The notes below the pieces were generated by a model, which saw only the letters and a program-made list of their open reading frames with translations, was not told where the DNA came from and made no database searches. A stretch of DNA of 57,117 nt from Microcoleaceae cyanobacterium (GTDB taxonomy: Bacteria; Cyanobacteriota; Cyanobacteriia; Cyanobacteriales; Microcoleaceae). The stretch lies in contig JBOFUV010000028.1 in the NCBI GenBank assembly GCA_051652765.1, forward strand, positions 1-57,117, written 5' to 3'. This document shows positions 45,190 through 54,973 of the stretch, piece by piece. Numbering within the stretch: position 1 is the first letter of the stretch; each line of letters starts with the position of its first letter. Made by a program: the position numbers and the translations under genes.

Positions 45190-46914
45190 TTGACACAAAT
45201 GAATAATGAAAACTGGCAACAGGGTCAGCAGGTTGAACTTTTAGTCACCGACCTGTCTGACGAGGGTAACGGAGTAGGGCGTTACCAAGATCGGGTGGTA
45301 TTTGTGCCAGATACCGTTCCAGGCGATCGCATTTTAGTCAAACTGATTCAGGTAAAGCCTCAGTTTGCCGTTGCCAGACTAGAAGAGTTGCTGGAACCTT
45401 CAGAACACCGAATTCGGCCTCGCTGTATTGTGGCGGACAAGTGTGGCGGTTGTCAGTGGCAATCCGTGGACTATGACTATCAACTTGTCGCCAAACAAAA
45501 TCAGGTCATGCAGGCCCTAGAACGAATTGGCGGATTTCAGCATCCAGTGATTGATCCAATTCTGCCTTCCCCAGCATCGTTGGGATACCGCAACAAAGCG
45601 ACTTATCCAATGGGCCTCTCGGCCACGGGCCAAGTTCAGGCGGGTTACTATCGCAAGGGCAGTCATCGGTTGGTGAACTTGAATCAATGTCCGATTCAGG
45701 ATGAGCGATTGAATCCGTTGCTGCTGAATATCAAGCAGGATATTCAGCAGCAAGGCTGGTCAATTTATGATGAATCCAGGCAGATGGGCAGATTACGTCA
45801 CCTGTCTCTGCGGATGGGTCGCTGCACGGGTGAGATCTTGTTGACGCTGGTGGTTAACCGTCCAGGGCAAGGGACTCAAAGGTTGGGCCGAGAAGAAGCC
45901 GCTGCCCTGTCTACCCCCCGTTCCCTGGGTCAGGAAAGTCCCCGTAAAATTCTAGTTTCACCTCGTCAAAACCCTCAACGTTCACCCATCGCCGCCCTCA
46001 AAAAAAGAGGAGTTGAGTTGAAAGGGCCTCGTGTTCGAGCCTATGAAACTAAGATGAATGAAACTAAGATGAATGAAACTAAGGCAAATGAAATTAAGAC
46101 AAATGAAATTAAGACGAATGAGACCAGACCGCAACAGAGTCCAAGGCAGAATCTAAGACAGGGTTCGGCGACTGTCGTGGTTGACTCCGCTAATCTGCCC
46201 AGACTAGAAACTCAAGCGCAGCGCTGGCTCGAACAATATCCTCAACTGGTTGGGGTTTGCCTGAACTTTAATTCTCACAAAAGTAACATCATTTTTGGTG
46301 AGGAAACATTTTGTGTTGCCGGTCGAGGCTATTTGCAAGAAGAATTTGCCGGGTTGATCTTTCGCTTGGCCCCCGAAACTTTTTTTCAGGTGAATCCAGA
46401 AGCGGCTGAACTCTTGCTCATAGAAATTCAGCAGGAGTTGAATCTTCAGGGCACTGAAATTTTAGTGGATGCCTACTGTGGAATTGGCACATTAACCTTG
46501 CCCTTAGCTCGACAGGTGCAGCAGGCGATTGGATTAGAAATTCAGGCTTCAGCCATTGAGCAAGCCAACCAAAATGCCAGTTTAAACACGGTTAAAAATG
46601 TGAGCTTTCAGTTGGGAACGGTGGAGCAATTATTGCCCAACTTAGAGGTGCATCCTGATATTGTTCTCCTCGATCCGCCGCGAAAAGGATGCGATCCAAA
46701 AGTAATCGAAACATTACTGACGCTGCAACCTGAACGAATTGTGTATATCAGTTGCAAACCTGCTACCTTGGCCCGCGATTTGAAGCTACTGTGTGAATCA
46801 GGAGTTTATCGTTTGACCCGTGTTCAACCGGCTGATTTCTTTCCTCAAACTTCCCATGTTGAATGTGTGGCTTTCTTAGTCAAAAATCCAGTTGAAAATC
46901 AGGCAGATGGATAA
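45190..46914 (+). CDS. rlmD: 23S rRNA uracil-1939 C5-methyltransferase with about 109-aa low-complexity insertion
   Basis: TRAM domain, C-x5-CGGC Fe-S motif, FFQVN, DAYCGIG, LDPPRKG, YISC, DFFPQTSHVE. Confidence 0.93.
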   Translation: MTQMNNENWQQGQQVELLVTDLSDEGNGVGRYQDRVVFVPDTVPGDRILVKLIQVKPQFAVARLEELLEPSEHRIRPRCIVADKCGGCQWQSVDYDYQLVAKQNQVMQALERIGGFQHPVIDPILPSPASLGYRNKATYPMGLSATGQVQAGYYRKGSHRLVNLNQCPIQDERLNPLLLNIKQDIQQQGWSIYDESRQMGRLRHLSLRMGRCTGEILLTLVVNRPGQGTQRLGREEAAALSTPRSLGQESPRKILVSPRQNPQRSPIAALKKRGVELKGPRVRAYETKMNETKMNETKANEIKTNEIKTNETRPQQSPRQNLRQGSATVVVDSANLPRLETQAQRWLEQYPQLVGVCLNFNSHKSNIIFGEETFCVAGRGYLQEEFAGLIFRLAPETFFQVNPEAAELLLIEIQQELNLQGTEILVDAYCGIGTLTLPLARQVQQAIGLEIQASAIEQANQNASLNTVKNVSFQLGTVEQLLPNLEVHPDIVLLDPPRKGCDPKVIETLLTLQPERIVYISCKPATLARDLKLLCESGVYRLTRVQPADFFPQTSHVECVAFLVKNPVENQADG

Positions 46915-50824: not shown

Positions 50825-51103
50825 TTACAGCCAATCTTCTTGATCCTGGGAACGACTCCGATAGACTTGACCTTTTGCATGAATTTCGCGGGTTTTTGCA
50901 AATAAGGTTGCTTCTGTAAATCCCCACCGTTGCATAGTTTCTTCTAAGTCTTGCTGAATATCTCTAGCCCCCGGAAACCCTTTGTAGCGAATTTTTAATC
51001 GGGCCAGTTCAGCGAGATTATGTTCCGTTGGATGGCTCTGTGGCAACGTATTAATGGTGGTGCGATCGCTTCTGTACTGAGGATGTTGCTGATCTTTAGC
51101 CAT
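50825..51103 (-). CDS. DUF3288 family protein
   Basis: DQQHPQY..DR, LAELARLKIRYKGFPGARDIQ, LFAKTREIH, C-terminal EDW. Confidence 0.88.
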   Translation of the reverse strand: MAKDQQHPQYRSDRTTINTLPQSHPTEHNLAELARLKIRYKGFPGARDIQQDLEETMQRWGFTEATLFAKTREIHAKGQVYRSRSQDQEDWL

Positions 51104-51177
51104 TATTTTTCTATAACTAGCCGGATAAGGTCAAAAAATTTTGTAATAAAGAGTGAACCTCTAGTCTAACAAAGATC

Positions 51178-51339
51178 ATGCATTCTAACCTCTGTGCCTG
51201 TCTCTTGGGTCTACTCTTCAGCCAACTCACCGCATTAACTGTGGTTGTTGGCTTTACCTCTGGGTCAACGTTTCAGACCAATAGCGCAGAGAGTTGTGAC
51301 AATCAGTGTCCCTATAGAGGGAGTGGTCGCAAGATTTGA
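51178..51339 (+). CDS. patX: PatX-like RGSGR-containing signalling peptide (53 aa; not in ORF track)
   Basis: Manual translation MHSNLCACLLGLLFSQLTALTVVVGFTSGSTFQTNSAESCDNQCPYRGSGRKI: hydrophobic leader and C-terminal PYRGSGRK. Confidence 0.78.
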   Translation: MHSNLCACLLGLLFSQLTALTVVVGFTSGSTFQTNSAESCDNQCPYRGSGRKI

Positions 51340-51538: not shown

Positions 51539-51952
51539 TTACTGTTCTTGATTGGGATTGATCTGGGGAATCATCCGGCCTAGGCTCAAGTCGTCTAGAT
51601 TAATAGCTTTGCTACCGCCGCTCTCAAGTTGAGTCAAGAGTTTGGAAAGCTGAAACCACACTAAACCTGCGAGTAAAGCGGTCGAGGGAGCCGAAAAAGC
51701 ATAGGCAAATTGGGCCGAAAATGTAAAAACCTGTAGGCAGGAGGCTAGGAAAACCCCAATCCCAATGGCTGTGCCCATAAAGGGAAGTAGCAATTGCACG
51801 CCTCGCATCTGAGAAAAGACTCGACTTGAACGGCTATTTTTCCACTCTTCCACTAGGGCTTTCAGAGTTGTAATAAATGCGGCGCAGGATGCAATTCCGA
51901 TCAGTAGGCCAGCAACAAGCAGAAAGTAGGGCGGTTGAGCAACCTCGTACAT
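51539..51952 (-). CDS. Conserved cyanobacterial hypothetical membrane protein
   Basis: PPYFLL..GL, three hydrophobic segments, C-terminal GGSKAINLD. Confidence 0.8.
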   Translation of the reverse strand: MYEVAQPPYFLLVAGLLIGIASCAAFITTLKALVEEWKNSRSSRVFSQMRGVQLLLPFMGTAIGIGVFLASCLQVFTFSAQFAYAFSAPSTALLAGLVWFQLSKLLTQLESGGSKAINLDDLSLGRMIPQINPNQEQ

Positions 51953-54283: not shown

Positions 54284-54973
54284 TTAGCCTGAACATTCCT
54301 GAGAGCAACAAGGCTTAGATTTGCTAGGTTGGAGTAGTTGGAAAGGACTCAGGGCAAGTAACCCACTGAGGCTCAGTAATGCCAGAAAAGCTGGACTTGG
54401 GAATGCTGTCTGCGATTTTATAGAAGTAATCTGCAGGTTGAGATCGGGGGCCGAGAACAGCGTGGTGTCTGAGATGTTCTGACCATATTCAATCGCTTGA
54501 ACCCCCTGATGTTCTTGCTGTCCAGTCGAAGTCGTAACCTCCCGATTCCAAATTTCTAGCACTTGAAGTTCAGGGAGTTTTTGGTTACGAGCAAACAAGT
54601 TCAGACCGCTGATGCCATGGGTACGCTCTTGGCCCTGACTGATCTGCTTTTCGCCCCACACAAAAGCTTCTAAGTCCTCTTTGCTCCAAGCGTAATCTCC
54701 CCAATTTGCCTGAAAGGATTGAAGTTCAGACAACTCTAGAACACCGTCAGTATCAGTATCAGATCCTTCAAAAACCCCGGATAGAATCTGGTTCCCAACT
54801 TGTTGCTGAAATTGAAAACGAGTGACTGTATTAAAACTCCAGTTGATAATACCAACGCTGATCGCGATGCTGACTGCAATGGCTATTCTTTGAGCAAGAC
54901 AACCTGGCGATTCCTGAGTAGGTGTGGAGAGTTTAGACGTAGAGAGTTTAGAAGTAGAAAATTGCTGCATCAC
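54284..54973 (-). CDS. Hypothetical exported protein with DxDxDG Ca-binding-like loop and degenerate PEP-CTERM-like tail
   Basis: N-terminal hydrophobic segment, FEGSDTDTDGVLELSEL, C-terminal FPSPAFLALLSLSGLLAL...KSK. Confidence 0.65.
   Translation of the reverse strand: MMQQFSTSKLSTSKLSTPTQESPGCLAQRIAIAVSIAISVGIINWSFNTVTRFQFQQQVGNQILSGVFEGSDTDTDGVLELSELQSFQANWGDYAWSKEDLEAFVWGEKQISQGQERTHGISGLNLFARNQKLPELQVLEIWNREVTTSTGQQEHQGVQAIEYGQNISDTTLFSAPDLNLQITSIKSQTAFPSPAFLALLSLSGLLALSPFQLLQPSKSKPCCSQECSG

Follow-up and report, generated by a model that had tools for sequence, protein, structure and literature searches.

PatX (Asl2332 in Nostoc/Anabaena PCC 7120; models NF047413 and PF28278) is a small precursor with a hydrophobic leader and a C-terminal Pro-(Tyr/His)-RG(S/T)GR. 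Our description of the family follows PMC7761841, PMC12756182, PMC5812504 and PMC7377430; the Y/H-RGSGR with its prolines is given in PMC5812504. According to PMC12756182, PatX of Nostoc requires Sec export and is cleaved by PatP, and the hexapeptide binds HetR and frees it from DNA. HetR holds XRGSGR by its free N-terminus, and binding weakens when the peptide is longer (PMC4649674). RGSGR is also carried by PatS (13–17 aa, ERGSGR, no signal peptide) and by HetN, a large reductase-like protein, neither of which is described with a cysteine loop. The roles of HetR and PatX in filaments without heterocysts, as well as PatX maturation, are treated as open questions in PMC7761841, PMC11298460 and PMC12756182.

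Here we examine the RGSGR-carrying ORF of a window, that is the whole stretch of 57,117 nucleotides analysed, from a Microcoleaceae cyanobacterium (genome G000, 5.04 Mb, 99.97% complete). G001 is a sister species, G002 belongs to the same genus, and g followed by a number stands for other genera. The features of the locus are as follows.

50825..51103, minus strand: DUF3288 gene (PF11691, 130.5 bits), divergent neighbour and synteny marker
51120..51154, plus strand: sigma-HetZ/DIF1-type promoter, GCCGGA-N16-TGTA-N8-T, 58 nt before the ATG
51178..51339, plus strand: patX orthologue ('B1' copy), 53-aa precursor, from translation, synteny and a named orthologue
51178..51255, plus strand: signal-peptide-like leader, residues 1–26, best 11-residue hydropathy 2.5
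51295..51309, plus strand: C40-x3-C44 pair, predicted disulfide loop, from translation, G001, g4 and family statistics
51313..51330, plus strand: YRGSGR, predicted mature HetR-binding hexapeptide, from the XRGSGR binding mode in PMC4649674
51316–51330, plus strand: RGSGR within YRGSGR, with Pro before YRGSGR and KI-stop after
51539..51952, minus strand: convergent 137-aa membrane protein, no family over cut-off, flanking the patX ORF in G000 and G001 only

A divergent patX orthologue at the DUF3288 locus

The initial annotation, made from the window alone, had proposed a PatX-like peptide of 53 aa with a leader, a spacer and CDNQC-PY-RGSGR-KI-stop, divergent from DUF3288 in a cobN context. The window translates in this way and DUF3288 and cobN lie as described, the latter beyond the former. 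Residues ~5–26 are hydrophobic, a polar spacer follows, and the precursor finishes with C40-D-N-Q-C44-P-Y-RGSGR-K-I-stop (C-terminal end CDNQCPYRGSGRKI; RGSGR at residues 47–51). The leader lacks Lys and Arg in its n-region and its hydropathy peak is similar to that of the orthologues. Its two cysteines (residues 6 and 8) stand, by eye, at the start of the hydrophobic stretch; a lipoprotein reading was rejected since no lipobox Cys comes after this stretch. No clear ribosome-binding site was visible upstream, and a scan of the gene's strand for sigma-70 promoters and terminators gave nothing above shuffles. Pfam held no family for the ORF, the exact protein sequence was not found in the protein collection, and a metagenome scan with the single window protein returned 596 pattern matches, of which 0 were confirmed.

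We then examined the DUF3288 loci of relatives. A divergent RGSGR ORF was observed at 7 of 29, corresponding to 7/23 within the family and 0/6 outside it. Among loci taken by DUF3288 position, it was present in 11/11 of g3 and 4/4 of g6; it also occurred in 4/4 loci of g15, three of them fetched at motif matches. Conservation, a check for which the initial annotation had called, is thus found in both position and promoter at relatives' DUF3288 loci. One syntenic orthologue, the product of the Limnospira locus L026, is identical to an entry that NCBI names 'heterocyst-inhibiting protein PatX', and three syntenic orthologues pass NF047413 at 39–43 bits. Because it occupies the same DUF3288-divergent locus as the NCBI-named PatX of relatives, the window ORF is a real, unannotated and divergent patX orthologue at a conserved locus, of a known kind. 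By contrast, the suggestion that the DUF3288 context marks a variant fails, as the named Limnospira PatX and Planktothrix-type orthologues passing the model sit precisely there. We also looked at DUF3288 loci in 52 named cyanobacteria, most of which belong to other families. They yielded 6 short RG(S/T)GR frames, several of them truncated and none with a hydrophobic leader by eye, and the DUF3288-patX link was not found outside the family among the loci searched.

In g3 and g6 the gene order is DUF3288, patX-B1, B2, tldD, where B2 encodes another peptide with a leader, has a DIF1-type promoter motif to itself and carries RGSGR in altered form (as seen at six g4 loci and one locus each of g3 and g6). 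The B1-B2-tldD portion is intact in g4, apart from DUF3288, and a B-type copy is close to tldD in g5, g14 and g2 as well. G000 and G001 show a break in the cluster between B1 and B2, and there the 137-aa membrane protein stands where other genera have patX-B2 and tldD. Judging from this order in relatives and its break in G000 and G001, the window ORF is the B1 orthologue; an ORF on contig C61 resembles B2, with an intact RGTGR. A duplication of the window and C61 copies on the cluster break within the genus was also considered and dropped, because tandem B1-B2 already exists in g3, g4 and g6 and C61 resembles B2. The B2 motifs read at L008:~2480-2710, L235:~1590-1800, L298 and L306-L310 are PGDGRR, RGAGRR, RGDTRR, RGESRR, RGDGRK and RGEDRR, and this PatX-like paralogue may be a decoy or may address another receptor. 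In G002, no such ORF was found at DUF3288, nor in the 205 assembled bases that follow the other flanking gene; a methyltransferase-like gene (L003:1833-2612) lies upstream of DUF3288 there, in the position of the patX copy of G000 and G001.

A longer, hetR-linked class A patX copy was found in most genera. At six g3 loci (L239-L244), the ~2.5 kb preceding hetR contained no RG(S/T)GR ORF, and none was detected upstream of hetR at the G009, G002 and G001 loci either (among L245, L246 and L145); the class A copy of G001 and of G002 is on another contig than hetR.

The window protein shares with PatX its small size, the RG(S/T)GR near the C-terminus, a Pro-Tyr before the motif, a DIF1 promoter, co-occurrence with hetR and positional orthology with a named PatX, on which grounds the PatX-like assignment of the initial annotation stands. 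PY is the third commonest pair before the motif (11/130 representatives, among the best 150 of 179 described below). The protein differs from PatX in being shorter (53 aa), in carrying CxxxC directly before the motif, in being one of three intact copies and in scoring 11.8 bits against NF047413 (heterocyst_PatX), under the cut-off of 30, so that it is not filed under this model. The marine hetR-linked copies tested, with 20.6–25.2 bits, are under it too. Alignment of the window protein to a family profile by hhalign covered only 15 columns, and ESM Atlas matches to PatX (0.79–0.81) served as a lead only. With PatS and HetN the protein shares RGSGR and, by prediction, the same HetR hood pocket. 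A PatS reading was rejected for a 53-aa protein with a hydrophobic leader, YRGSGR rather than ERGSGR, and no NF047415 match.

Two further ORFs of the window were recorded. By the end of cobN, the plus-strand ORF 45190-46914 encodes a TrmA/RumA-type RNA methyltransferase of 574 aa with a long low-complexity insertion, repeated KxNE(T/I) units lying around 46000-46200. The ORF 54284-54973 (minus strand) encodes a 229-aa protein without a Pfam family, with a hydrophobic tail after 'FPSP', which by eye we take to be PEP-CTERM-like; a similar ORF lies at L300:3-623, and weak sub-cut-off NCBIfam matches to ANT(3'') models look spurious.

Three promoted patX copies in a genome with hetR

A six-frame search of the genome gave 30 RGSGR and 15 RGTGR matches. 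With these 45 RG(S/T)GR matches, the pentapeptide alone is not beyond chance and is uninformative. Of the 45, only 4 belong to ORFs that do not exceed 130 aa and carry a hydrophobic leader; three of these 4 (window, C49 and C61) also have a DIF1-type promoter 58–62 nt upstream. The C49 copy (G000:C49:19501-19773, plus strand; L001:699-971) is the canonical hetR-linked patX: it encodes 90 aa with PHRGSGR followed by 11 residues, lies directly upstream of hetR, carries a TCCTGA promoter variant at -60 and scores 16.9 bits against NF047413, under the cut-off. The third copy, of B2 type (G000:C61:41024-41236, minus strand; L056:1488-1700), encodes 70 aa with PERGTGRREW and is convergent on a TldD-family gene; it has one cysteine, present in G002 too, whereas the G001 counterpart shows CAC and RGAGR. 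G000 thus carries three intact patX copies, each with its own promoter, in agreement with the extra paralogue suggested initially. Since Table S3 of PMC12756182 already lists more than one PatX per genome (two in five of the ten Planktothrix rows consulted), the patX gene and its context are ordinary.

The initial annotation had noted the absence of hetR from the window and asked for a genome-wide check. Profile search indeed found a single hetR, on contig C49 (NF009718, 578 bits, cut-off 489). The encoded HetR keeps R223, E253, E254, D256, D270 and D278, all six of the PatS6-contacting residues given in PMC4649674. The genome also contains hetZ (645 bits, cut-off 550), two VKOR matches and one S13 peptidase gene, S13 being the family of the PatX peptidase PatP. 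Two more HetZ-related genes (G000:C19:3384-4475 and C54:11360-12007) stay below the HetZ cut-off, with 482 and 77 bits. Nitrogenase searches in the genome gave no match over cut-off, the top scores being 216 bits against 394 for nifH and 43 against 654 for nifD. From the source names of family proteins (Limnospira, Planktothrix, Microcoleaceae, Okeania, Trichodesmium), we infer that the host is among the non-heterocystous filamentous cyanobacteria.

As for PatX, where a DIF1-type promoter is located ~60 nt upstream in genomes with hetR and hetZ, the window promoter has a single mismatch, at the first base, to the sigma-HetZ consensus TCCGGA-N16-17-TGNA-N7-9-T, and a change at this base is reported to be tolerated (PMC13342950). 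The initial annotation had made no mention of this promoter. The stricter promoter pattern occurs at 154 sites in the 5.04 Mb, or ~0.15% for every 100 bases on a single strand. Upstream of eleven B1 genes (the window ORF and ten orthologues), both the -35 and the -10 box align, the -10 box being degenerate in the G001 orthologue. In a hand-picked PatX set of 106 rows (104 ORFs at 102 of 104 loci, the start filter having removed the remaining two), the relaxed motif was found upstream in 103.

Cysteine pairs beside the motif

The cysteines before PYRGSGR had been read initially as a possible disulfide loop or modification site, with conservation of the pair to be checked. Both are kept in the G001 orthologue as C-D-N-C-P-Y-RGSGR (CxxC), at 41% overall identity. 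In g4, 6/6 B1 genes with enough flank carry CxxxC a few residues before the motif, with varying spacers (TTN, TNN, TAN, TTN, NSN, SSD); a seventh g4 tldD locus ended at a contig edge and is outside this count. No mature cysteines were found in B1 of g3, g6, g8 and g15, or in the B copies of g5, g14 and g2 examined.

Pairs were also observed in another paralogue. In the marine genera g9, g11 and g12, the hetR-linked copy has C-x6..11-C-P-H-RGSGR in 14 of 16 ORFs and the other two lack both cysteines. The pair-bearing loci are L216-L225, L126, L172 and L162; the two g9 genomes without both are those of L226 and L227. Over 28 marine hetR-linked-type proteins, two cysteines were counted in 22, one in 3 and none in 3. 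In this clade G128/P0183 and P0198 have lost the first Cys but have another at a distance of three residues, whereas both cysteines are absent from G010 and G143. Two tandem patX copies lie upstream of hetR in G132.

A cysteine-containing DNA pattern, run over 401 genomes of the order, brought up a third geometry in families f20 and f35, in which the cysteines flank the motif (CPHRGSGRC, CPHRGSGRRC, CPPHRGSGRC and CDPHRGSGRKDDC), as well as three g34 proteins that keep the downstream Cys only. This set, selected for cysteine, was kept out of the statistics. The differences in paralogue, spacing and family suggest that the pairs may have arisen independently.

For an unbiased test, a profile was built from 34 PatX without mature cysteines, and out of 179 representatives at 50% identity we took the best 150, of which the 130 carrying RG(S/T)GR formed the statistics set. 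In these 130 among the best 150 of 179, with the mature boundary set by hydropathy, 0, 1, 2, 3 and 4 mature cysteines were counted in 102, 14, 12, 0 and 2 proteins, against 92, 31, 6, 1 and 0 expected; 32 of the 46 mature cysteines are in even-count proteins, versus 12.3 expected (p 5e-5). The even-count excess held with one sequence per cluster at 68, 39 and 11 clusters (p 0.0005, 0.001 and 0.006, one random draw each), similarity clustering only partly removing kinship. The cysteines therefore pair up across the family, which favours the initial disulfide reading, the bond itself being predicted. An even post-leader cysteine count and the presence of VKOR genes are likewise found for disulfide-bonded exported proteins of DsbA/VKOR bacteria. 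The present pairs are unlike those proteins in that they adjoin or surround a peptide that needs release, in linear form, to act.

The main rival explanation is that of an ordinary PatX orthologue in which the cysteines pair without any special role: free thiols would be purged, so that cysteines survive two at a time. Bacteria with DsbA/VKOR show a bias towards even Cys numbers in their exported proteins generally (PMC12453122), most representatives (102/130) have no mature Cys, and cysteine-free orthologues hold the same locus in g3, g6, g8 and g15. However, in the same 130 among the best 150 of 179, a cysteine lies within 4 residues of the motif in 10 of 14 paired proteins, versus 3.7 expected (p 0.0007), and single cysteines lie farther away than pairs (Mann-Whitney p 0.01). 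Moreover, the pairs are kept across whole genera while spacers change, and they come in at least three geometries, in different paralogues. Motif clustering and retention across genera argue against cysteines that are merely tolerated in pairs, and we regard this explanation as unlikely, though still one to be reckoned with.

Several PatX-like proteins show related arrangements. P0110, P0141, P0143, P0165 and P0182 end in RGCGRR, PGCGRR or PGCSRR with exactly two mature cysteines each, and in P0172 and P0175 an RGCG/PGC-type module accompanies an RGSGR enclosed by cysteines. Between two and four RG(S/T)GR copies are present in the precursors of 13/130 representatives among the best 150 of 179, and also in those at L249 and L250.

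We found no title or abstract on PatX cysteines; the family-defining Elhai and Khudyakov 2018, with its supplements, was outside this search and may show paralogues or cysteines. The word 'cysteine' is absent from the main texts of PMC7761841, PMC12756182 and PMC5812504, and 'disulfide' from that of PMC12756182. The recurrent motif-adjacent cysteine pair thus appears, from sequence statistics, to be a supported variant feature for which we found no description.

Proposed mechanism and its meaning

The best explanation in our view, which we hold to be probable with some reserve, is that the window gene is a B1 patX orthologue whose product is exported, looped and trimmed to a HetR-inhibiting YRGSGR. 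It would be transcribed by sigma-HetZ. Export, processing and HetR inhibition are inferred by analogy with Nostoc PatX: the precursor is likely exported by Sec, and trimming is predicted to leave YRGSGR, a peptide that would return into cells and act there as an inhibitor of HetR. In the periplasm, C40 and C44 are likely oxidised to a disulfide loop. Weighing against this, most of the 130 representatives have no mature cysteine, and a single one is seen in 14 of them, in the three g34 proteins and in 3 of the 28 marine-clade proteins. C44 is two residues before Y46, outside the bound hexapeptide, and the loop must therefore act on the precursor; the cysteines can bear on precursor stability or processing, not on the HetR-bound peptide. 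The disulfide may protect the precursor by stabilising its C-terminal piece, or may block trimming immediately ahead of Pro-Tyr for as long as it is not reduced. Where the cysteines enclose the motif, their ring could also keep RGSGR off the extended strand bound by HetR. Compared with the hetR-linked copy, which lacks the cysteines, the looped copy would have a different lifetime, range or dependence on redox state. Because no nitrogenase was found, the presumed output is filament behaviour (growth, fragmentation) rather than heterocysts.

Alternatively, the target of the exported signal could be, instead of HetR, a receptor at the surface or in the periplasm that reads the looped form, with RGSGR kept for that receptor. 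Deletions of patX and hetR in Leptolyngbya BL0902 gave largely independent expression changes (PMC11298460). B2 and other PatX-like peptides keep leader and promoter with altered motifs (RGDTRR, PGDGRR, RGCGRR), those of the RGCG/PGC type invariably with two cysteines, and this points to other receptors. The window copy nevertheless has an exact RGSGR and faces an intact HetR pocket, its promoter links it to the HetR-HetZ loop, and PMC7761841 and PMC5812504 relay that a PatX from Arthrospira had an inhibitory effect on heterocysts in Anabaena. We consider such a target improbable.

Decay of a third copy whose expression or need was lost is more improbable still. It would fit the low HMM score, the weak leader, the ORF not found in G002 and the exact sequence not in the protein collection, but frame, motif, cysteine pair and promoter are all intact, and the divergence of G001 leaves conservation concentrated on the functional end.

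CxxC and CxxxC spacings are a metal-binding and modification pattern too. A metal site or an enzymatic modification substrate (thioether or other RiPP-type ring) fits such spacings, and the ancestral cluster adjoins a gene for a protease of the TldD family, which is reported to process microcin B17 (PMC5810440), but this reading is hardly credible: no modifying enzyme was found among the scanned neighbours of the window ORF, tldD is convergent and not co-transcribed, and spacings from x2 to x11, sometimes enclosing the motif, are better fitted by a disulfide.

Returning to the looped PatX precursor, a wider proposal is that several non-heterocystous filamentous lineages, including the marine Okeania/Dapis/Trichodesmium group, independently put a disulfide lock on PatX, either as a loop ahead of RGSGR or as a ring surrounding it, leaving the inhibitor inert and stable in the periplasm until reduced and trimmed. 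We put this forward tentatively and find it rather doubtful.

For the family, HMM-based PatX surveys undercount, since all three copies of G000 score below the cut-off, as do the marine hetR-linked copies that were tested. A loop with a purely structural role would leave no more than a small gain in annotation. Three separately promoted patX copies and the family-wide motif-side cysteine pairs offer simple handles on the role and maturation of PatX. If the lock is true, HetR inhibition would be redox-gated, and a single genome would operate several PatX signals that differ in range and timing.
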